NCBI GenBank assembly: GCA_938034375.1
Contig: CALHLB010000081.1
Span: forward strand, 1-53,654
Direction of reading: 5' to 3'
DNA length: 53,654 nt
DNA from: an uncultured Alphaproteobacteria bacterium
GTDB taxonomy: Bacteria > Pseudomonadota > Alphaproteobacteria > Rhizobiales > JACESI01
Under the pieces are notes generated by a model, which was not told where the DNA came from, made no database searches, and was given only the letters and a program-made list of their open reading frames with translations. A program made the translations under genes and the position numbers. Position 1 is the stretch's first letter. Every line of letters begins with the position of its first letter. Shown here piece after piece: positions 40,214 through 53,654 of this stretch.

Positions 40214-40274
40214 GCGATGCTCCCCAGCAATTCGCTTAGGTTAAAAAGATTCTAATCGCTCCCCAACCAGAATC
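40214..40274 (-). ncRNA. Structured flgB 5' leader: two hairpins with (U)GGGGA loops
   Basis: GAUUCUGGUU-GGGGAGC-GAUUAGAAUC (three G-U pairs) and GCGA(AU)UGC-UGGGGA-GCAUCGC; the second hairpin contains the SD. Confidence 0.6.
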
Positions 40275-40279
40275 ATCAT

Positions 40280-40337
40280 AGGAAAATCTTGCCTGCTTAT
40301 GGTTAATCAAGTGTTAACAACTAGGTAAGGATTGCCT
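40280..40337. promoter_or_regulatory. Two ftr-like (FlbD-type) palindromes flanking the CtrA box
   Basis: AGGAAAATCTTGCCT (40280-40294) and AGGTAAGGATTGCCT (40323-40337); consensus GGCAA-N3-TTGCC. Confidence 0.6.
40299..40318 (-). promoter_or_regulatory. CtrA box of the flgB class II promoter
   Basis: TTAA-N7-TTAA at 40303-40317; minus strand GTTAACACTTGATTAACCAT. Confidence 0.85.
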
Positions 40338-40528: not shown

Positions 40529-41065
40529 ATGACAGAATGGTTAAACCCGATTGTTGGGGAAGAATATGCAAACTACGCCTCTATAGGCATCGCACTCATT
40601 ATTGTTTTTCTTTTAATTTCATTTTTGTTTAGAATTTTAAACGCCTTTCGTGCCGGTGGCTTTAACGGTAAACGTCAAAACAGACTTGGCATAACCCAAG
40701 CCATTGCCCTGGAAGGAAAAAGACGCATTGTTCTTGTAAGGCGCGATGATGTGGAACATCTCATCATGATTGGGGGTGAAAATGATCTTGTTATTGAAAA
40801 AAACATAGAGGGTAAAGTGCCAAAGCCCCTACCCAATAAAAAAGAAGTAACAGAAAAAAAACAAGCAGTCATAACCAATAATGACGAACAAACCCTTGTT
40901 AAAAAAAAGCCTTTAAACAACAAAACCGATAACGTTCCAGTCACAATTTCTGAACCGGCCCTCGAACGGAAAAGAAAAACTGTTAGTAACCCACAAACCC
41001 CTAACGACTCAGCTAAAATAACAAAAGAAATGGATCTTCTTTTGGACCAGATAGCTGGAGATTAA
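40529..41065 (+). CDS. fliO: Flagellar biosynthesis protein FliO
   Basis: N-terminal TM, RLGI..AI.L.GKRRIVLVRRDDVEHLIMIGG; directly upstream of fliP. Confidence 0.85.
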   Translation: MTEWLNPIVGEEYANYASIGIALIIVFLLISFLFRILNAFRAGGFNGKRQNRLGITQAIALEGKRRIVLVRRDDVEHLIMIGGENDLVIEKNIEGKVPKPLPNKKEVTEKKQAVITNNDEQTLVKKKPLNNKTDNVPVTISEPALERKRKTVSNPQTPNDSAKITKEMDLLLDQIAGD

Positions 41066-41918: not shown

Positions 41919-44900
41919 CTAAGCATCCGGCGCTTTGGGAAGTGCATTACGTGTGCGCGATAAATAGCGACGGCGATAATCACGTAAAAAAGAATCCACT
42001 GTACCAATATTCAAGATACTGTCTACAGCAACATCTCGCTCAAAACTCTGTTCATCTTGTGGCTGAACCAAAACCTGAAAAATTGAAGCATCTTGACTTT
42101 CAGCCATTTTTTGTCCGAACTTCTGGTTCAGACGGTTAAGAGCAAAATCATCTTTACCAAGAGAAAAAGCAATAGCCGCACGCATAATATCAAGTCTTAC
42201 ATGAGGCTCCAGCGGGTCGACATCAGCCCATCGGCCACTATGTGCTTTTTCTAAAAGTTCACCAGCTGCACTCCAGCGACGCGCATCCCAATTAATGTTA
42301 GCCCGTAACCTGTTCACATCTCCTCCCTCAAGACTTTCTAAAAGCTCAAGTGCAATATCGTATTTGCCAATTTCAGAAAGAGCATAAGCTTCAACCAATC
42401 GCCTTTGACGTTTTAGTGTTGCAGGAATACTGGCAGAACGCGTTTTATGTATCGTGGTTATAGCCTTATGAGGTTCATGGTCCAAAAGCTGCACCACTGC
42501 CAAATCGGCTGCAACCCTTGCTCTTGCAGAACCTTTGAGGCGTTTATCAATCTGATGCTGCAATAAATCCGCTGCCTGCGGCAAAAGATCAAGATCAACC
42601 AATCTTCTGGAAAGGTAGCGCACAATCTCATCGCCTACACGACCAATTGGGGTTAAATGTTTAAAGTCATAATAAAGACTAAGTGCCTCAATAGGTTCAA
42701 GGTTATCAGCCTTACCGTCATGAAACAAATCCACAAACAAAGCTTTCATATCATCTTGAAGGCCATAGGTAATGGACGAAGTATTATCTGAGATTGTCGC
42801 CGTTTTTACCAATTTAAAAGCCTTGCGGTATTCTCCTTCTTCAGCCAGAACACCACTTAGATTTCTTAAGGCTTGCAATTCAAGGTCATCATTACGCCAA
42901 ATTGCGACAAATTTTTCATATTCTTCAATCGTATCCTTGTTGGCGACTTTGCCAGTCTTATGATTTAAATCGATAAGACCGAGACGAGCCTCTGATACAA
43001 TACGCGGATCATTAAAAACAACGGCTCGGTTATAAAAAAAGCGGGCATCTTCATTGCGCCCTTCTTCTATTGCCAATTGCGCCTGCAAAAGCTCATATCG
43101 TCCGAGATTATAACGTGATGCATCCCGTAAAACGAGATTGCTTAGATAATTCTTAGCGCTGCTCAAATCTTTCAAAACAAGAGAAGCTTTGGCAGCTGAC
43201 AAAAAAAAGTCTTGTTGGGTTTCTGGATAATAGGAAGAAAGCCTCACTTTGCCAAGAACAGCGCTTTCAGCTGCTATAGACCATTTACCTTCATTAACAG
43301 CTGCAATTGTGCGCCAAACAGCGGCATCTTGATCCTTATGATAACTTTCCTCCCCTAAAGTTTTGATAGCATCATCAAAGCGCCCCATTGTTATTTGAGC
43401 AGCCGCCCTTGATAAAACAAATGTTCGTTTATTTTCTAAAAGCGGTTGAATAGCTAAAGCCCTATCAATGTTGGCTAGCGCCTCAGGTCCATAATGGTTA
43501 GCAACATAAAACTTGGCTAGAGAAAGATGTGCTTTAGGTAATTCTTCATCTGAAGCAGAAATAATCTGATTAATCAAATCGGCTTCCCGTGTCGCAAACC
43601 GCACTCTTTCAGCCTTATCAGCAGTCGTAATTTCTAAAGGTTCATCATACCATTCACCGGTAATAATCTTACCACTGGCAGAAGCACGTAATTCCTTAAG
43701 TGTTGAGAGGTTAAGCGCCCGCTCAGAACTTTCAATAGCAACGCCACTTTCTTCAATACGCGCTCTTACCGTATCGCCTAGAGGAACAAAAGCAACCGCA
43801 TGCGTTGAAGGTAAAATTGTTAGCATTACAAATTTTTGAGAACGAATAAGTCCACGCGAGGGAGGATCAGCCACGACAACATGAACTTTATCGCCAACAT
43901 CTGGATCGGTAAAAATCTCACTTCCTCTGGCATTATTAAGAGTCACATTCAAAAACAGGCCTTGCTCACTTAATTGTCTCTCTACTATTAAAGGTTCTGA
44001 TGCTCGAATAACTGAATTACCAATAGAAACAATCCAGCTATTCTCATCAATCGCGGCAGAAGCAAGTTGCGCCGTTGGTAAAACTATACGAACGGCTTTA
44101 TAATTTCCTTTTTCAATGATTTCTACCTTACGTAAGAACTCACCTTTAAGATTATCCAACCCGCTTATATCAATCTCATCTTCTGTTAAAAAAACCATCC
44201 AGACGGATTTATCCCGACGAAAAATAGCCGATGGCGTTTGCTTATCAAAAGGAAATACAACCCTTAAAGCGTCATTATTTTCATTAATGCTTGCCTCAAC
44301 AGCACTAACACCTTGAACTTTTTTGTCTGCCTCATCCACTTTTTCAGGGTTTAAGGCAAAGCCCTGTTCACCAGTCAACTGCTCAGAGTTTGATTTGTCT
44401 TTCTCTTCTGCAACATTTTTCAACGCATTATTTTCACGGCCATCTCTTGGAACAGCGCTTGGTGGATCCCCTTGCTTATTTTCCTGCTGTATGGTCTGTG
44501 ATCTTGTTTGCGTCTCTTGCGGGATTTGTGCATGATCTTCAGCCAACCCTCTTGGCGCAATGCTTGGCGGAGCAACTTGCGAAACATCGCGCGCTGTATC
44601 AGGAACCGCCGGTAAGCCACCAATGACAAACGGAGCACCATTTTTATTATCTAACTGGTCACCCGTAATATCAATGATATAATCATCCCCATCTATATAA
44701 GAGCGGATGCGCGCCTTTTTATCCAACTTCATACGAACAATGGTTTGATCTTTTCCTAACTGGCCAATAATACGTTTTACAAATGCTGGCGGCGCGGCAT
44801 TGATTGGGCCAAAGTCATATTTGCCAACCTTATCAAAAACTAGAATGGCAATATCATCCTCCCTCTTAAATGAAACACCATAGGGAACATTCCATGAAAA

Positions 44901-45521
44901 AACAAAACGACTAAAAGTTGGGTGCCGACCAAGGCGAACATTTAAAACAACCTTCTTTTCATCGTCATCATCGCTATTTAAAAGAGCATTTTGCTTGGCA
45001 AGAGCAAGAGCAGCTTCGGCTCTGCTTTCCAGTTTTCTAACAACATCTTCCGGAATTGAAGGATTTTCTGCAGTCCACGTCCTTGGTAAAAAGTCAATAT
45101 AAAAGTGTTCACCAGCGGCAAGCGTATTTACCCTAACGCCAGCAGCAAGAGCAAATCTTAAAACGGTGCCTTCTGGATCTTGGCGAGCAATTAAAACATA
45201 ATCTTTTAGAGGTTCAGCAGCTTTAACAAGGTCAATATTAATCGGTTCATCAAGACGCAAAACCACAACATTATCATCCGTTGAAATCGTATGATTAAGA
45301 AATTTTGTCCTGTCTGGTAAGCTTAGTGAAAATCGACCAAAGCCCCGATCTGTTTCAACATCAACACGTACATTAACCGCTTCTGGTTCTTGCGCTAAGC
45401 CGTTTGAAATCCCTGAAAGAATAGCTAAAGCAAAGGCAAGTATAAATAGAAGGCAGAAAAAACACTTCCCAACCTCTAATAAATGGCCCTTAAGCCTGTT
45501 ATGGAAACAACATAAATTCAA
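41919..45521 (-). CDS. Large exported TPR-containing flagellum-associated protein
   Basis: N-terminal hydrophobic segment, beta-rich repeats (RLGRHPTFSRFVF), helical TPR-like C-terminal half; downstream of motE. Confidence 0.75.
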   Translation of the reverse strand: MNLCCFHNRLKGHLLEVGKCFFCLLFILAFALAILSGISNGLAQEPEAVNVRVDVETDRGFGRFSLSLPDRTKFLNHTISTDDNVVVLRLDEPINIDLVKAAEPLKDYVLIARQDPEGTVLRFALAAGVRVNTLAAGEHFYIDFLPRTWTAENPSIPEDVVRKLESRAEAALALAKQNALLNSDDDDEKKVVLNVRLGRHPTFSRFVFSWNVPYGVSFKREDDIAILVFDKVGKYDFGPINAAPPAFVKRIIGQLGKDQTIVRMKLDKKARIRSYIDGDDYIIDITGDQLDNKNGAPFVIGGLPAVPDTARDVSQVAPPSIAPRGLAEDHAQIPQETQTRSQTIQQENKQGDPPSAVPRDGRENNALKNVAEEKDKSNSEQLTGEQGFALNPEKVDEADKKVQGVSAVEASINENNDALRVVFPFDKQTPSAIFRRDKSVWMVFLTEDEIDISGLDNLKGEFLRKVEIIEKGNYKAVRIVLPTAQLASAAIDENSWIVSIGNSVIRASEPLIVERQLSEQGLFLNVTLNNARGSEIFTDPDVGDKVHVVVADPPSRGLIRSQKFVMLTILPSTHAVAFVPLGDTVRARIEESGVAIESSERALNLSTLKELRASASGKIITGEWYDEPLEITTADKAERVRFATREADLINQIISASDEELPKAHLSLAKFYVANHYGPEALANIDRALAIQPLLENKRTFVLSRAAAQITMGRFDDAIKTLGEESYHKDQDAAVWRTIAAVNEGKWSIAAESAVLGKVRLSSYYPETQQDFFLSAAKASLVLKDLSSAKNYLSNLVLRDASRYNLGRYELLQAQLAIEEGRNEDARFFYNRAVVFNDPRIVSEARLGLIDLNHKTGKVANKDTIEEYEKFVAIWRNDDLELQALRNLSGVLAEEGEYRKAFKLVKTATISDNTSSITYGLQDDMKALFVDLFHDGKADNLEPIEALSLYYDFKHLTPIGRVGDEIVRYLSRRLVDLDLLPQAADLLQHQIDKRLKGSARARVAADLAVVQLLDHEPHKAITTIHKTRSASIPATLKRQRRLVEAYALSEIGKYDIALELLESLEGGDVNRLRANINWDARRWSAAGELLEKAHSGRWADVDPLEPHVRLDIMRAAIAFSLGKDDFALNRLNQKFGQKMAESQDASIFQVLVQPQDEQSFERDVAVDSILNIGTVDSFLRDYRRRYLSRTRNALPKAPDA

Positions 45522-48355: not shown

Positions 48356-48441
48356 GCTATTCACCTATCATGTTGCAATCAAACAATAATTCTAAAAATC
48401 AATCATGAATGATTCTCTGTGGAATTAATATTACGATCATA

Positions 48442-48460
48442 ATGGTTAACGAATTCTTGC
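48442..48460 (-). promoter_or_regulatory. CtrA-type class II promoter element of fliL
   Basis: Minus strand GCAA-GAATTCG-TTAACCAT. Confidence 0.65.
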
Positions 48461-48486
48461 ATTTTATTAACAAAGAATAAGGCGCT

Positions 48487-48531
48487 AGGCACATATTGCC
48501 GACCATTTTTGCCGCTAGGCAAACCTTACCG
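48487..48531. promoter_or_regulatory. Two ftr-like enhancer palindromes upstream of the sigma54 promoter
   Basis: AGGCACATATTGCCG (48487-48501) and AGGCAAACCTTACCG (48517-48531), 30 bp apart, about 100 bp upstream of the predicted TSS. Confidence 0.65.
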
Positions 48532-48586
48532 AGTCAAGATCATCCAATAAAAATAAAAAATACAATAAAATCATATACTTAATAAG

Positions 48587-48603
48587 TTGGCATAGTTTCT
48601 GCT
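48587..48603 (+). promoter_or_regulatory. Sigma54 (-24/-12) promoter of flgFGAH
   Basis: TTGGCATAGTTTCTGCT (GG-N10-GC); IHF-like AATCATATACTTA in the AT-rich tract just upstream. Confidence 0.85.
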
Positions 48604-48613
48604 TACATGAAAA

Positions 48614-48678
48614 TGTGTCATCCACTGGGGAGTGGGTAACACAAACCTGAACTGGGGAGTTCGGGTCACATTGGGGAA
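48614..48678 (+). ncRNA. Structured flgF 5' leader (probably flg-Rhizobiales-like RNA motif)
   Basis: Hairpins 48614-48643 and 48645-48666 share the loop UGGGGA and each has a U-G wobble; a third unpaired UUGGGGA at 48671-48677; begins at the predicted sigma54 TSS. Confidence 0.7.
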
Positions 48679-48698
48679 AAAAGAAAAGGTGCTTCGTT

Positions 48699-49442
48699 AT
48701 GGAGAATGCACAGTTAATTACTCTGTCGCGTATATCTACGTTAAACAGACAAATGAGTGTTGTTGCCAATAATTTGGCAAATATGAATACAACAGGTTTC
48801 AAGAGCGAAAATATGCTCTTTGAAGAATATATAAGCCCTGTTGGCAGCGCTGAAAGTTTTGAATTCGGCGATCGCGATCTTAGTTTCGTTCTTGATGACC
48901 GGACAGTTGGCAATTTTAATGTTGGCGCTTTGGAAACAACAGGCAACCAGCTGGATGTAGCTCTTCAAAGTGAAGGTTTTTTTGCTATTCAAACCCCTGC
49001 TGGTGAACGTTACACAAGAACCGGTGGTTTTACCCTTGATCCAACAGGACAGCTCACAACCCATGACGGATTTCCCGTTCTTGGTGAAGATGGGCCAATT
49101 ATCTTTGATCCAGATGAAACAAATATTTCAATAACAGGCGATGGCGCCATTTCTGGAAGGGAAGGCGAAATTGGTCGCCTCCGTATTGTTACTTTTGATG
49201 ATCCGCAACAATTAGACAGAATTGGTAATAATCTTTTTGAAGGCGCTAATCCCCTCCTCGCAGAAACACCACGTGTTGTACAATTTGCGCGTGAACGTTC
49301 CAATGTTGATCCAATTTCAGAAATTTCCCAAATGATTGAAGTACAGCGGGCCTATGATCAACTGGCCAACATTATGCGCCAGCAAAATGATCTGCGCGAA
49401 ACTGCCATTCAACGCCTTGGCCGTGTCCAAGTTAACGCATAA
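48699..49442 (+). CDS. flgF: Basal-body rod protein FlgF
   Basis: VANNLANMNTTGFK, TGN.LDVAL, RYTR.G.F, SNVDPI.E. Confidence 0.93.
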   Translation: MENAQLITLSRISTLNRQMSVVANNLANMNTTGFKSENMLFEEYISPVGSAESFEFGDRDLSFVLDDRTVGNFNVGALETTGNQLDVALQSEGFFAIQTPAGERYTRTGGFTLDPTGQLTTHDGFPVLGEDGPIIFDPDETNISITGDGAISGREGEIGRLRIVTFDDPQQLDRIGNNLFEGANPLLAETPRVVQFARERSNVDPISEISQMIEVQRAYDQLANIMRQQNDLRETAIQRLGRVQVNA

Positions 49443-49456
49443 GGGGAGATGATAAA

Positions 49457-50245
49457 ATGCAAGCACTTCACACAGCAGCCACCGGAATGCGCGCCCAGGA
49501 ACTGAATGTTCAAACCGTTGCCAATAACATTTCAAATATTAGGACAACAGGCTTTAAAAAACAAAATGCCGAATTTCAGGACCTTCTTTATGAAAACGTT
49601 CGTCGTGTCGGGTCCAGTTCTTCCAATTCAGGTACAATTGTACCAACCGGTGTACAAATTGGTTCTGGCGTTAAATTTGCTGCAACAAGCCGCGTTTTAA
49701 CGCAAGGGCCATTAGAACAAACACAACAACCGCTTAACCTAGCCATTCGAGGCGAAGGTTATTTTGAAATTCAGCTGCCAGACGGACGCACAGCTTACAC
49801 ACGCGATGGTTCTTTTGAACGTAATCAGGATGGTGAGGTTGTTACACTGGATGGATATCAAGTGGGTGGCGGTATCACTATTCCACAGGACGCGCGCTCT
49901 ATCAATATTTCAACTGATGGACAAATTGAAGTTGTTGCAGGCGATGATGCAAACCCCACCAATGTTGGCCAGGTAGATATTATCAACTTTATCAATCCAG
50001 GCGGGCTTGAAGCGATAGGCGACAATCTATTTGTCGAAACAGCCGCAAGCGGCAACCCACAAACAGGCACACCAGGTGAAGAAGGGGTTGGCGATGTTTT
50101 GCAAGGATTTCTTGAAGGCTCAAACGTTGAGGCCGTTCGTGAAATTTCAGATCTAATCGCAGCTCAACGCGCTTATGAATTAAATTCACGGGTTATCTCT
50201 GCTGCCGATGAGATGATGCAATCAGCAGGGCAGATTTTACGTTAA
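49457..50245 (+). CDS. flgG: Basal-body rod protein FlgG
   Basis: ANNISNIRTTGFKK, EFQDLLY, YTRDGSF, QRAYELNS. Confidence 0.96.
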   Translation: MQALHTAATGMRAQELNVQTVANNISNIRTTGFKKQNAEFQDLLYENVRRVGSSSSNSGTIVPTGVQIGSGVKFAATSRVLTQGPLEQTQQPLNLAIRGEGYFEIQLPDGRTAYTRDGSFERNQDGEVVTLDGYQVGGGITIPQDARSINISTDGQIEVVAGDDANPTNVGQVDIINFINPGGLEAIGDNLFVETAASGNPQTGTPGEEGVGDVLQGFLEGSNVEAVREISDLIAAQRAYELNSRVISAADEMMQSAGQILR

Positions 50246-50270
50246 ACGCACTGATCCCTAAAAGGAGGTC

Positions 50271-51269
50271 ATGACAATGTTGAAATTTATTAAAAAATTT
50301 GGGCCTTTTATTCCAGCCCTTTTCTTAACGTTACTTGTTGGTCACGCTTCTGCAGCCAGTATAAAAAGTACCGTAACTGTCTATTCCAATATTGTGACCG
50401 TAAAAGACCTTTTTGAAAATGCCGACAAGCTTGCCAATGAACCTTTATTTCTATCACCTGATATAGGAAAAAGCGGCACAATCAGCGCACAACGCGTTGC
50501 AAATGAAGCGTATAATATTGGTCTATACAATATTGAACTTAATAATATTGAAACGGTCACGGTCCATCGCCCAAGCCAAAAAATAAACCGTGACCGCCTT
50601 CAGGCCGAATTAAGGGATATTGTTACAAAAAAGCTATCTACAAAAATCGATTTTGAGTTAACAACAAATAGCTTGCCCAAACTTGTTCATGCAGATGCCC
50701 GCATCAGTGATGCCGTTAAGGTGCGTGACTTCAGGCTTTTTGAAAATGAAAAGCGCTTTGAGGCAATATTTGAAATTAGCAGCTATAATCGTCCAACAAA
50801 TATTCCCGTACGGGGCGCCATTATAGAAATGACAAAAGTTATTACCCCAACCCGCGCACTTCAAAGGGATGAAGTGATTGGGGCCGGTGATGTGGAAGAA
50901 AAACGCGTTCCACTGGCACGTGTTCGTCCAGGCACTTTATCTTCTTTAGAAGCTTTTATTGGCAAAGCTGCAACAAGAAATTTGGCACAAGGTAATGCCT
51001 TGCGCGAAAAAGATGTCACAGAACCCATATTGGTGCGTTCAAATGACTCTGTTTCCATTCTTTATTCAATTCCAGGTTTAATTTTAACATCTCAAGGCCG
51101 CGCGCTCGATCCTGGCGCTAAAGATGACATTATCTCGGTCATGAATCTACAATCAAGACGTATCATTCGTGGTCGTGTCACCAATAGAGGGGAAGTGATT
51201 GTTGATGTTAAGAAACCGCTTTTCGCCAATACTCAAATCCCATCACAAAATCCGCAAGAGGTTCGTTAG
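50271..51269 (+). CDS. flgA: P-ring formation chaperone FlgA
   Basis: Signal peptide, SAF domain, GRAL..G..DDII.V.NLQS.R. Confidence 0.9.
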   Translation: MTMLKFIKKFGPFIPALFLTLLVGHASAASIKSTVTVYSNIVTVKDLFENADKLANEPLFLSPDIGKSGTISAQRVANEAYNIGLYNIELNNIETVTVHRPSQKINRDRLQAELRDIVTKKLSTKIDFELTTNSLPKLVHADARISDAVKVRDFRLFENEKRFEAIFEISSYNRPTNIPVRGAIIEMTKVITPTRALQRDEVIGAGDVEEKRVPLARVRPGTLSSLEAFIGKAATRNLAQGNALREKDVTEPILVRSNDSVSILYSIPGLILTSQGRALDPGAKDDIISVMNLQSRRIIRGRVTNRGEVIVDVKKPLFANTQIPSQNPQEVR

Positions 51270-51271
51270 TT

Positions 51272-52042
51272 ATGCGTATTCATGCCTTATTTAAACACCA
51301 TGGTCGCCCAAAAAAGACTTTGTTAATCACCCTCACCCTTGCAACAGCTTTAACCGGATGTGGCGCGGCCAACCAATTATCCGAAATTGGCAAAACACCG
51401 AAACTTTCCGCGATTGAAGACCCAACGGCGCAACCAGGTTATAAACCCGTTAGTTTGCCACAACCAGCACCTGAACCAGCGGTTTATACCGCAAATTCTC
51501 TTTGGCGATCAAACGATCAATCCTTTTTCAGAGATGGCAGAGCCCGCCGTGTCGGCGACATTTTAACCATCAATGTTACAATCAATGATGAAGCCGAGTT
51601 TGAAAACACAACAGAACGCAACAAAACATCAAACCGAAGCTTAGGAGTTGGTACAGGGGTTTTAGGTTCAATTTTCAGCCTTATACCTGGCATTTCAGAT
51701 ACAAGCGCGGTTTTAAGCGCTAATGCCTCCAGCGATACAGAAGGTGAAGGCACAATCGAACGTTCAGAAGCACTCACAACAACGATTGCAGCCGTGATCG
51801 TACAACAATTGCCCAATGGCAACCTTGTTATTGAAGGCAAACAGGAAGTACGGGTTAATTTTGAAATTCGAGAGCTTGTTGTTGCTGGTATTATCAGGCC
51901 AGATGATATTCAACCCGATAATACAATTGAATCTTCTAAAATCGCACAGGCGCGTATTTCTTATGGCGGGCGCGGCCAAATAAGTACATTGCAACAACCA
52001 GGTTACGGTGATCAGATCGTTGATATTGTTGCACCATTCTAA
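51272..52042 (+). CDS. flgH: L-ring protein FlgH
   Basis: Lipobox LTGC, RARRVGDILT, LPNGNLVIEG, IAQARISYGGRG. Confidence 0.96.
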   Translation: MRIHALFKHHGRPKKTLLITLTLATALTGCGAANQLSEIGKTPKLSAIEDPTAQPGYKPVSLPQPAPEPAVYTANSLWRSNDQSFFRDGRARRVGDILTINVTINDEAEFENTTERNKTSNRSLGVGTGVLGSIFSLIPGISDTSAVLSANASSDTEGEGTIERSEALTTTIAAVIVQQLPNGNLVIEGKQEVRVNFEIRELVVAGIIRPDDIQPDNTIESSKIAQARISYGGRGQISTLQQPGYGDQIVDIVAPF

Positions 52043-52055
52043 AAAGTTCAAAAAA

Positions 52056-52123
52056 GCTCCCCAGCCGTTCGCCTCCCCAATTGAGCGGCTAGAGGTTCGT
52101 TCGCTTCCCAATTGAACAACCTC
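52056..52123 (+). ncRNA. Structured flgH 3' trailer: two hairpins with C-rich UCCC(C)AA loops
   Basis: AGCCGUUCG-CCUCCCCAAU-UGAGCGGCU (52063-52090) and GAGGUU(C)GUUCG-CUUCCCAAU-UGAACAACCUC (52092-52123); G-U pairs favour the plus strand; additional CUCCCCAG at 52057-52064. Confidence 0.65.
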
Positions 52124-52164
52124 AAAAACGGCACCTGTAGCCATAACTACAGGTGCCGTATTTT
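52124..52164. terminator. Bidirectional intrinsic terminator
   Basis: ACGGCACCTGTAG-CCATAA-CTACAGGTGCCGT with A and T tracts. Confidence 0.9.
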
Positions 52165-52165
52165 A

Positions 52166-53257
52166 TTAACCAATAGAAGAATTACGATCGGCAAGTTTTT
52201 TCTCGAAATGAAACTTAAACTTTTTACGGAAAAAAATATCAACACGTTTTGATAACGAATGAATTGGAATTGAAATGAGCAAGCTAAAAATACAAACCAA
52301 TAAACTTTTAGGAGCAAGCTCAAAAAATGATGGTGAAAAAATATAAGAAACAAAAGTTAAAATAGGAACATGAATTAGGTATATTGGATACGATAATTCT
52401 CCTAAAAATCGGTCAAAAGAATTTTTTTTCGTAGCATGAAAACAAAGTGGGGAAGAAATTATTAATAACATGATTAAAAAACAACCAGTAAACTGTGCTC
52501 CAAAATTATGAGCGAACCAATCCCATTTATAAAAAGAGTATGAAATTGCAAATATCAACGCCCATCCAATAAAATTATGAGCCCTGCCAATAAATATAGC
52601 TTTAAATTTATGAGCCAGCATCCCAAGACAAAATACAGTTAATTCATTGGGCATAAAACGATAATTCCATGGATCATGTTGACCAAAGGCGGAATACGTC
52701 ACAACAATTGACAGCACAGAAAATGAAAAAAACAACAAAATCACTCTTATTGATTTGATCATAAACGGTGCAAGAAGGTAAAAAGACAATTCTACAGGTA
52801 AAGACCATGCTGGTGAAATATAAAAAAATGGATGGAAACGATATTCTTCCAATGCAAAATTTGATGTAAATTCAATCCCATCGGGTGTTGGATGTGTGAA
52901 CATGGCCCAATCAGAGCCAAACAGAAGCAAATTTGAAAAAAGCAGAAATAGTTTTGCCGAAAAAGTAAACGGTGCCTGAATAATATTCCAAAATTCATTA
53001 ATTCCAATCAATTGCAACAAAAATATTGATACAATCAAACAGACCTAATACCCTGAAAAGATTCTCGAAAAACGATTCCAATAAAAATGTGCAGGATTTG
53101 CATATTTTGCTTCTGAGACCATGGCCATATAAAAACCAGAGAGAGCGAAAAAAGCTTTTACTGCAAAGGAGCCAGGTAATAAACTGCCCAAAATAGGAAG
53201 CGGGCCTGCATGCGCCGTTAAAACTGATAGCGCCAATAAAATTCGTATAATGCCCAT
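52166..53257 (-). pseudogene. Acyltransferase-3 (OafA-like) gene with an in-frame amber stop
   Basis: IRILLALSVLTAH, AVKAFFALSGF, WSLPVELSFYLLAP, LGELSYPIYLIH. The two ORFs are in frame, separated by TAG at 53047-53045 where Trp is expected (RIFSGY*). Confidence 0.8.
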
Positions 53258-53294: not shown

Positions 53295-53654
53295 TTAATC
53301 GTCACGATAAACTTTTTCACGCTTTTCGTGGCGTTCTTGTGCTTCCAGTGAGAGGGTTGCAACGGGGCGCGCTTCAAGTCTACCAACACCTATTGGCTCC
53401 CCAGTTTCTTCACAATAACCGTAGGTGGCATCCTCAATACGGGCAAGAGCTGCATCGATTTTTGATATTAATTTGCGTTGACGATCCCGCGCCCTAAGCT
53501 CAACCGAACGATCTGCCTCTGAAGAAGCTCTATCGGCAATATCGGGGTGGTTTTGGCTTTCTTTTTGAAGAGCCTCCAATGTTCCCTTGGATTCTTCAAG
53601 AATTTCATTTTTCCAGGCTAAAAGCTTGTCTTGAAAGTACTTTACTTGACGAGG
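53295..53654 (-). CDS. dksA: RNA polymerase-binding protein DksA (5' end outside the window)
   Basis: PRQVKYFQDKLLAWK..., DIADRASSE, RARDRQRKLISKID.AL, YGYCEETGEPIG. Confidence 0.95.
   Translation of the reverse strand, partial: PRQVKYFQDKLLAWKNEILEESKGTLEALQKESQNHPDIADRASSEADRSVELRARDRQRKLISKIDAALARIEDATYGYCEETGEPIGVGRLEARPVATLSLEAQERHEKREKVYRDD

Follow-up and report, generated by a model that had tools for sequence, protein, structure and literature searches.

Do the two ends of a flagellar transcript recognize each other? This question is raised by the flgF-flgG-flgA-flgH (flgFGAH) operon of an uncultured alphaproteobacterium, which we analysed in a window of 53,654 nt, contig C81 of genome G000 (2.5 Mb, 41.6% G+C, 98.4% complete). 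The 5' leader of this operon, which encodes rod proteins, the P-ring chaperone and the L-ring protein, carries three G-rich elements, and the trailer that follows flgH carries three C-rich elements complementary to them. An original prediction, made from the letters of the window, had placed these six elements, and all of them were found where it had put them (Table 1). We consider it reasonably probable that the trailer is the source of a base-pairing RNA, borne in the 3' untranslated region (3'UTR), which would feed back on flagellar leaders.

We investigated first the structure of the two ends. The mRNA would start at about 48613-48615, as placed from the position of the promoter. From there the leader folds into two hairpins that present CUGGGGAG at their tips, followed by the single-stranded element AUUGGGGAA, which includes UUGGGGAA (48671-48678). 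This third element lies about 8 nt 5' of the Shine-Dalgarno sequence AAGGUG (48686-48691) and 21 nt 5' of the flgF AUG (48699). The leader fold has an energy of -28.8 kcal/mol (z -2.45) and was equalled by 1 of 200 shuffles. The promoter, both hairpins with invariant CUGGGGAG tips and the third G-rich element were kept in all nine family genomes. Moreover, the alignment of the nine family sequences showed two-sided changes at 12 of 21 base pairs (8/12 in helix 1 and 4/9 in helix 2), with 80.3% of cells paired compared to 26-51% when the partners were slid, and its covariation score was reached by none of 500 shuffles. The third element varied, reading AUUGGGGAG in G006-G008 and a UUGGGAA-type sequence in G001, G003 and G004. 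In a scan for hairpins with a GGGG loop the two leader hairpins were the longest, and no other convincing candidate was found; a scan for a sigma-54 promoter followed by a G-rich motif returned the flgF leader as the sole clear case.

The trailer folds as described in the original prediction as well, and far more stably than its shuffled versions (-48.6 kcal/mol, z -8.94; reached by 0/200). It consists of a single-stranded element, GCUCCCCAGC, complementary to the CUGGGGAG loops and including CUCCCCAG, of two hairpins with the loops CCUCCCCAAU and CUUCCCAAU, and of a terminal hairpin with a U-rich tail, which likely constitute the terminator and the 3' end of the RNA. In the trailer alignment (A2), 14 of 30 pairs showed two-sided changes, 87.8% of cells were paired compared to 35-44% with slid partners, and none of 500 shuffles reached the observed value. 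Pairs changed on both sides were seen in each helix: 4/8 in helix 1, 5/8 in helix 2 (71% of cells paired) and 5/14 in helix 3 (96.4% of cells paired). The terminal hairpin may have a role beyond termination, for instance in binding a protein or stabilising the RNA, since its CCAUAA loop was invariant in 8/8 family genomes and since G002-G004 have no U tail after their last hairpin.

The two ends had been assigned to a single mRNA because G-U wobbles in their stems would become A-C mismatches on the other strand. This argument held in the alignments, in which some relatives show G-U or U-G at many conserved pairs of the plus strand, at both ends, where the opposite strand would read A-C. It was weaker for the single sequence of the window, of which the opposite strand of the trailer alone folds about equally well (-49.0 kcal/mol, z -4.34).

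We then determined how far the complementarity goes beyond chance. In the window, the CUGGGGAG octamer and its complement were counted 5 times in total compared to 0.91 expected, a number reached by 0/100 shuffles, and in the 2.5-Mb genome 16 times. Of the five occurrences in the window, three belong to the leader and trailer and a fourth to the flgB ribosome-binding site. The leader (97 nt) and the trailer (170 nt) share a Watson-Crick match of at most 8 nt, a length reached by 56 of 200 Markov-shuffled trailers. Complementarity within this one genome is thus at chance level, while it is significant that the elements cluster locally, are placed in loops and are conserved; the case therefore rests on comparison with other genomes.

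Both ends were compared in 84 loci, around 50 of them from the Bradyrhizobium group and two (L031 and L032) repeating G006 and G007. A first count gave 76 loci with both motifs, 6 with neither and 2 with the leader only (L098 and L105). In these two, the trailer element was located further downstream, at about 165 and 262 nt, and the final count was 78 with both, 6 with neither and none with a single motif. The C-rich trailer was hence kept wherever the G-rich leader was kept, as a partnership of the two ends had implied. A C-rich-loop trailer followed flgH in many Hyphomicrobiales, with examples in Bradyrhizobium, Rhodopseudomonas, Nitrobacter, Afipia, Rhodoplanes and Blastochloris, and also in Methylobacterium, Pleomorphomonas, Stappia, Pseudovibrio, Devosiaceae and others; in nearly all relatives we observed a structured stretch with C-rich tips 3' of flgH and a hairpin at its end. 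The trailer of the Bradyrhizobium group is shorter and consists of a free GAGCUCCCACA, one long hairpin and the terminator loop GCUCCCCUG. A search with the trailer pattern in this group gave one match, at the flgH trailer, in 4 of 5 genomes; the match in the fifth was unrelated.

Sequence variants tracked each other between the two ends when flgF leaders and flgH 3' regions were compared. In the family of the window, CUGGGGAG goes with CUCCCCAG and AUUGGGGAG with CUCCCCAAU. The Bradyrhizobium group combines UGGGAG at one end with CUCCCA at the other, and likewise CAGGGGAG with CUCCCCUG. The corresponding variants are GGGGAAG and CUUCCCC for Devosiaceae, CUUGGGAA and UUCCCAAG for Pleomorphomonas, and GAUUGGGGAAAA and UUUUCCCCAAUC for G095. 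We quantified this effect by scoring leaders against their own and against foreign trailers among 18 clade representatives, summing the best contiguous helix over the leader G-cores. Own pairs scored 1021, compared to 930 +/- 28 for permuted pairs; the own-pair score was reached by 15 of 20000 permutations, and the mean rank of the own trailer was 5.6 compared to 9.5 expected. The effect was also seen with the single best core helix only (179/20000) and in a looser version with 28 representatives and all helices (83/10000). It disappeared in a control with reversed trailers, which keep composition and C-runs (13459/20000). An attempt with RNAduplex on whole leader and trailer sequences gave a meaningless long duplex and was replaced by these contiguous-helix scores. 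In three relatives, perfect matches exceeded those of all 200 shuffles (13 nt in L034, 12 nt in L089 and 11 nt in G006), and the longest matches in relatives involved the single-stranded third element or the Shine-Dalgarno region.

As a class-wide control, we examined 60 genomes from other alphaproteobacterial families, of which 37 had a FlgH and 31 could be tested for complementarity. Almost all operons of the FlgH-positive genomes had a sigma-54 promoter before flgF, a leader that is not G-rich and a trailer that is not C-rich, and complementarity was at chance and not G-rich in 30 of the 31 testable genomes. The exception was L160 (G095), in which a trailer hairpin loop is a perfect 14-nt complement of the element adjacent to the Shine-Dalgarno sequence (0/200 shuffles) and in which a GGGGAAAA/UUUUCCCC variant is carried on both sides. 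The trailer elements are conserved, complementary to the leader and co-varying with it, which are the properties expected of the seed of a small RNA (sRNA). The comparative test that the original prediction had called for thus came out in its favor: with the trailer kept wherever the leader is kept, and with variants tracking each other, the data support that the two operon ends are RNA partners.

A second site was found within the same window. The ribosome-binding site of flgB, 6 nt before its AUG (40212), forms a hairpin with GCUGGGGAGC at its tip, and trailer element 1 is a perfect 10-nt complement of this hairpin. It represents the strongest single trailer match in the family of the window. 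Co-folding of the flgB hairpin with the trailer brought a gain of -13.9 kcal/mol compared to 0.0 with the reversed trailer. The hairpin was kept in 6/6 same-genus genomes examined (G006-G008 not among them), with a compensatory A-U to U-A change in the stem, and the trailer loops of G002-G004 match the flgB site over 10 nt, as judged by eye from the sequences. The flgB ribosome-binding hairpin is thus a candidate second target of the trailer RNA. Two other features were seen in the flgB leader: a second G-rich element, UUGGGGAG, about 40 nt 5' of the hairpin (40259-40266, minus strand), and a TTAA-N7-TTAA motif further upstream (40300-40330, minus strand), which we take to be a CtrA box. TTAAC repeats of a similar kind were also seen before flgB in other genera.

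Several observations, in addition to the chance-level match in the window, weigh against a partnership of the two ends. The loci are phylogenetically related, so that the counts overstate their independence, and the 18 clade representatives were picked by eye. G002, G007, L107 and L099 ranked their own trailer at or below average. Many genomes of the Bradyrhizobium group carry AAGGGGAG opposite CUCCCCUG without a compensating change, and G002-G004 have lost the single-stranded CUCCCCAG element and lack a U tail. Co-folding of the flgF leader with the trailer gained -10.8 kcal/mol compared to -8.1 kcal/mol with the reversed trailer, and is uninformative since the reversed control is nearly equal. 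The flgB leaders of Bradyrhizobium, Rhodopseudomonas, Stappia, Pseudovibrio and Pleomorphomonas showed neither a GGGGAG hairpin nor a trailer match, and inspection of the divergent strand at these leaders gave nothing useful; the flgB match is therefore a family feature. Finally, the leader hairpins fold with GGGG tetraloops of only 4 nt, so that full 8-nt pairing requires their stem tips to be opened. In one of its two readings, the original prediction had the ends pairing through a loop-loop helix. Pairing as such is supported by the comparison, but a kiss between loops was not established, given these tetraloops and the location of the longest matches at the third element or the Shine-Dalgarno region.

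The same data bear on explanations in which the two ends are not partners. The G-rich loops might bind a protein or the ribosome, as CsrA-like GGA sites or standby sites, with the trailer being a terminator region or a general anti-Shine-Dalgarno sRNA and the complementarity a by-product of Shine-Dalgarno-like and anti-Shine-Dalgarno-like sequences. Leaders bound by CsrA display GGA at the tips of hairpins and have a further site close to the Shine-Dalgarno sequence, a layout that the flgF leader resembles; the core GGGGAG/CUCCCC looks like a Shine-Dalgarno/anti-Shine-Dalgarno pair, and chance-level complementarity in the single genome agrees with such an origin. However, neither a CsrA (PF02599) nor an FlbT gene was found in this 98.4% complete genome, while the PF02599 control was positive in 3 genomes, and a protein binder is disfavored since a protein would not explain a co-varying complementary partner. 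Strict co-occurrence (0/84 loci discordant), the co-variation of core-flanking nucleotides between the ends, which gave no signal with reversed trailers, and the class-wide sample, which lacks the motifs and is at chance in 30/31 genomes, likewise argue against unrelated functions, and we consider them fairly unlikely. Chance resemblance of short, functionless low-complexity motifs would account for an 8-nt match that 56/200 shuffled trailers reach, but it is hardly credible in view of the conservation across many families, the covariation of the structures, the co-occurrence and the own-versus-cross pairing.

The motifs might also act as double-stranded DNA, with a single regulator binding at either end of the operon to sites that are inverted relative to each other. 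Indeed, CTGGGGAG and its reverse complement form one and the same site in a duplex, and the octamer is enriched in the flagellar cluster (5 compared to 0.91 expected in the window). Nevertheless, the motifs are located 3' of the promoter and 5' of the terminator, at the tips of hairpins with co-varying stems and sense-strand G-U pairs, and the trailer is C-rich on the sense strand in every positive locus, which a DNA site would not need. A DNA-level site is very unlikely for these reasons.

If the ends are RNA partners, do they act within one molecule or through a released RNA? The trailer of the full-length flgFGAH mRNA could pair with its own leader, closing the mRNA or reporting a complete transcript, with no separate sRNA involved. 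Both partners lie within one transcription unit in all 78 positive loci, no own promoter of the trailer was found (a search between 51582 and the trailer yielded no sigma-70-like promoter), and the co-evolution data fit action in cis as well as in trans. The trailer is nevertheless built like a 3'UTR sRNA, with a single-stranded seed, seed loops and a terminator hairpin, and its best match in the genus is the ribosome-binding site of another operon, that of flgB. Moreover, the element follows the flgH stop codon at a variable distance (about 10 to 262 nt), so that nothing ties the element to the coding part. The sRNA-like build, the flgB match and the variable spacer make us lean towards a released RNA, and we regard exclusive action in cis as unlikely. 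The trailer lies on the sense strand between the stop codon and the intrinsic terminator, as 3'UTR sRNAs do, and the lack of an obvious promoter of its own fits a 3'UTR origin. A gene for the RNA chaperone Hfq was found in the genome (G000:C166).

Reading the trailer as a 3'UTR-borne base-pairing RNA, we propose the following mechanism. The region from the flgH stop to the terminator (approximately 52050-52165) would encode a structured RNA with a length of roughly 110 nt. It would arise as the 3' end of the flgFGAH transcript, which is driven by sigma-54, and would probably be released from it as an sRNA. Of the three C-rich seeds presented by this RNA, one would be single-stranded and the other two displayed in large hairpin loops. 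They would pair with the G-rich sites of the flgF leader, namely the two hairpin tips and the Shine-Dalgarno-proximal element, and, in the family of the window, with the flgB ribosome-binding hairpin as well. The output of the operon would in this way feed back on the translation or stability of rod and ring mRNAs. The effect would most likely be negative, because in Bradyrhizobium-type relatives it is the Shine-Dalgarno sequence that is matched. What the analysis shows are the sequences and their folds, the covariation of both structures, and the co-occurrence and co-evolution of the two ends; from these we infer that the trailer is transcribed, that it is released as an RNA of its own, that it pairs in the cell and which sign the effect has.

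The original prediction had pointed to the flg-Rhizobiales RNA motif, which was catalogued without a function (Weinberg et al. 2010, PMC2864571) and is represented in Rfam by RF01736 (gathering score, 55 bits). This family exists, but its model gave no match in the window at the gathering score and none on 48365-48760 at E up to 10. A whole-genome search of G000 gave no match either, in a search in which the control genomes were likewise silent. The model did match the flgF leaders of Rhodopseudomonas L093 (124.6 bits) and Bradyrhizobium L051 (106.5 bits), once above the cut-off per genome and at the same position before flgF as in the window. The window leader shares the placement of the family: it is part of the 5' untranslated region of a flagellar operon and is located before the flgF start, just 3' of a sigma-54-type promoter. 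It shares the layout too, with two hairpins of GGGA-type tips followed by a G-rich, GGGGAG-type element at the ribosome-binding site. It differs in its tips, which are CUGGGGAG instead of the UUGGGAGA of RF01736; the RF01736-positive Rhodopseudomonas and Bradyrhizobium leaders combine UUGGGAGA tips with the Shine-Dalgarno sequence GGGGAG. The RF01736 consensus has a third hairpin across the start codon, according to the model alignment. The window leader is therefore a look-alike at the same position, probably a divergent relative of RF01736, and a non-member by model score.

The trailer matched no Rfam family, and Rfam has no 3' partner of the motif on record. With the window trailer, Rfam returned only chance-level rows of microRNA and small nucleolar RNA families on the terminator hairpin at E up to 10, and at the gathering score no family was found on any trailer in the 10 loci scanned. 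A search with nhmmer detected no second copy of the leader or trailer element in the genome, a weak match on C32 falling in coding sequence. We found no paper on an sRNA after flgH or on a partner of flg-Rhizobiales; the supplementary tables of Bradyrhizobium start-site (PMC4842269) and small-RNA papers may list such a transcript.

Some known sRNAs nevertheless share features with the proposed RNA. The alphaproteobacterial AbcR1/2 RNAs and the alpha-r14/NfeR1/CcsR "cuckoo" family carry C-rich anti-Shine-Dalgarno hairpin loops that pair with G-rich ribosome-binding regions, and the putative trailer seeds are of the same kind; unlike them, the trailer has no Rfam match, is fixed after flgH and has a flagellar leader as its proposed partner. 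In Campylobacter jejuni, CJnc230/FlmE is an sRNA located 3' of flgE, which derives from an RpoN-dependent flagellar mRNA and uses base pairing to repress flagellar regulators (Konig et al. 2024, PMC11187230). Like it, the candidate RNA of the window is encoded downstream of a flagellar structural gene in an RpoN-type transcription unit. CJnc230/FlmE is unrelated in sequence, host gene (flgE) and phylum, targets flgM and Cj1387c instead of its own leader, and has its processing and targets established by experiment, whereas the trailer RNA is a sequence-based candidate.

The 3'UTR-derived sRNAs OppZ and CarZ of Vibrio cholerae autoregulate their own operons (Hoyos et al. 2020, PMC7398697). As would be the case here, a 3'UTR-borne sRNA feeds back on its source operon. 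OppZ reportedly pairs inside its operon and acts with Rho; the matched sites of the window are instead a 5' leader and the ribosome-binding site of a second operon. In Escherichia coli and Salmonella, FlgO, FliX and MotR originate from untranslated regions of flagellar mRNAs and tune flagellar synthesis, as summarized in a citing article (Melamed et al. 2023, cited in PMC13432727). On that summary, these are sigma-28-dependent, late-class RNAs with other targets and no sequence relation to the trailer. Since 3'UTR sRNAs, autoregulation and flagellar sRNAs are already known, the trailer RNA would be a new broad instance and not a new principle.

A wider proposal, to which we would give an even chance, is that the flg-Rhizobiales leader and its G-rich look-alikes are the receiver, and a C-rich 3' sRNA of the same sigma-54 operon the sender, of a system whose co-evolution extends over Hyphomicrobiales and at least one further family of Alphaproteobacteria. 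Completed rod and ring transcription would then set the translation of rod genes, through the operon's own leader and, in the family of the window, through the flgB operon. If true, this would be a widely conserved 3'UTR RNA feedback on the leader of the same operon and an RNA-level checkpoint in the Caulobacter-type flagellar hierarchy, acting on the earlier-class flgB operon too. It would add an RNA layer to the sigma-54/FlbD-type hierarchy of Alphaproteobacteria, and it offers a concrete partner and mechanism for an Rfam motif left without a function since 2010. To our knowledge, post-transcriptional flagellar control in Alphaproteobacteria is known mainly for flagellin, via FlbT and FlaF. 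Both halves of the system are present in the culturable Bradyrhizobium diazoefficiens and Rhodopseudomonas palustris.

Table 1. Window positions of the flgFGAH operon, of the elements at its two ends and of the flgB site.
Feature	Positions	Strand	Basis or detail
Sigma-54-type promoter, TGGCAT-N6-TGCT (GG and GC boxes)	48588..48603	+	pattern search
Leader hairpin 1	48614..48643	+	fold; CUGGGGAG at tip 48625-48632, GGGG loop
Leader hairpin 2	48645..48666	+	fold; CUGGGGAG at tip 48652-48659, GGGG loop
Third leader element, single-stranded	48670..48678	+	AUUGGGGAA; includes UUGGGGAA at 48671-48678
flgF-flgG-flgA-flgH operon	48699..52042	+	rod proteins, P-ring chaperone, L-ring protein
flgF	48699-49442	+	open reading frame (ORF) list and Pfam
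flgG	49457-50245	+	ORF list and Pfam
flgA	50271-51269	+	ORF list and Pfam
flgH	51272-52042	+	ORF list and Pfam; stop codon 52040-52042
Trailer element 1, single-stranded	52056..52065	+	GCUCCCCAGC, complement of CUGGGGAG loops; includes CUCCCCAG at 52057-52064
Trailer hairpin 1	52063..52090	+	fold; loop CCUCCCCAAU at 52072-52081
Trailer hairpin 2	52092..52123	+	fold; loop CUUCCCAAU at 52104-52112
Terminal hairpin and U-rich tail	52128..52165	+	fold; hairpin 52128-52159, 13 pairs, CCAUAA loop
flgB ribosome-binding hairpin	40214..40235	-	GCUGGGGAGC at tip 40219-40228; 6 nt before flgB AUG (40212)

The genes of the operon were assigned through matches to PF22692/PF06429/PF00460, PF13144 and PF02107, and fliL and fliM lie upstream of it on the opposite strand. 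The sigma-54-type element before flgF was aligned in 9/9 family genomes and recurred upstream of nearly every flgF in the samples of the order and the class; an rpoN gene was found in G000. Downstream of the trailer, a convergent acyltransferase gene (PF01757) occupies 52166-53038 on the minus strand, and the ORF at the end of the window (53295-53654, minus strand) is presumably DksA-like, as judged by eye from its translation. In the window the acyltransferase gene intervenes, whereas in several relatives the neighbor that converges on the flgH trailer is a DksA/TraR-like gene, with nothing in between. As the downstream gene varies in this way, the trailer element belongs with flgH. For two ORFs of the flagellar cluster no family was assigned. 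The first, of 1200 amino acids (41919-45521, minus strand), gave a sub-threshold tetratricopeptide repeat-like match only; the second comprises 178 amino acids and lies before fliP (40529-41065, plus strand), with no Pfam match.

Among RNA runs on record, none was listed as containing the homologous Bradyrhizobium stretch. Assembly from four runs gave contigs that end where the strains diverge downstream and are therefore uninformative about RNA ends. One public sequencing run (X11) contains a contig that covers the 3' part of flgH and the whole trailer of a Bradyrhizobium strain (L108:5306-5912). The adaptor-like loose ends on both sides of this contig look to us like a template-switch complementary DNA adaptor; neither the contig nor its ends were counted as evidence. 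Should this run derive from RNA, it would place flgH and the trailer on a single molecule in this strain.

A genome-wide list of further targets near start codons was too noisy for use. Outside the window, AUUGGGAAGG in the ribosome-binding region at G000:C151:145 (plus strand) is a 9-nt complement of trailer loop 2 and precedes a 567-aa protein that, by eye, we take to be a methyl-accepting chemotaxis protein; the site could be a further target or a chance match. Also outside the window, at G000:C113:357-520 (plus strand; L145:108-270), an RNA-like stretch of about 145 nt comes after a sigma-54-type promoter (TGGCAC-N6-TGCT). It carries the C-rich motifs CCCUCCCAAG and CUUCCUCCCGAC and a strong terminator with a U tail, and a small ORF lies downstream of it. 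This stretch, which matched no Rfam family, may be a second sigma-54-dependent sRNA of the anti-Shine-Dalgarno type.

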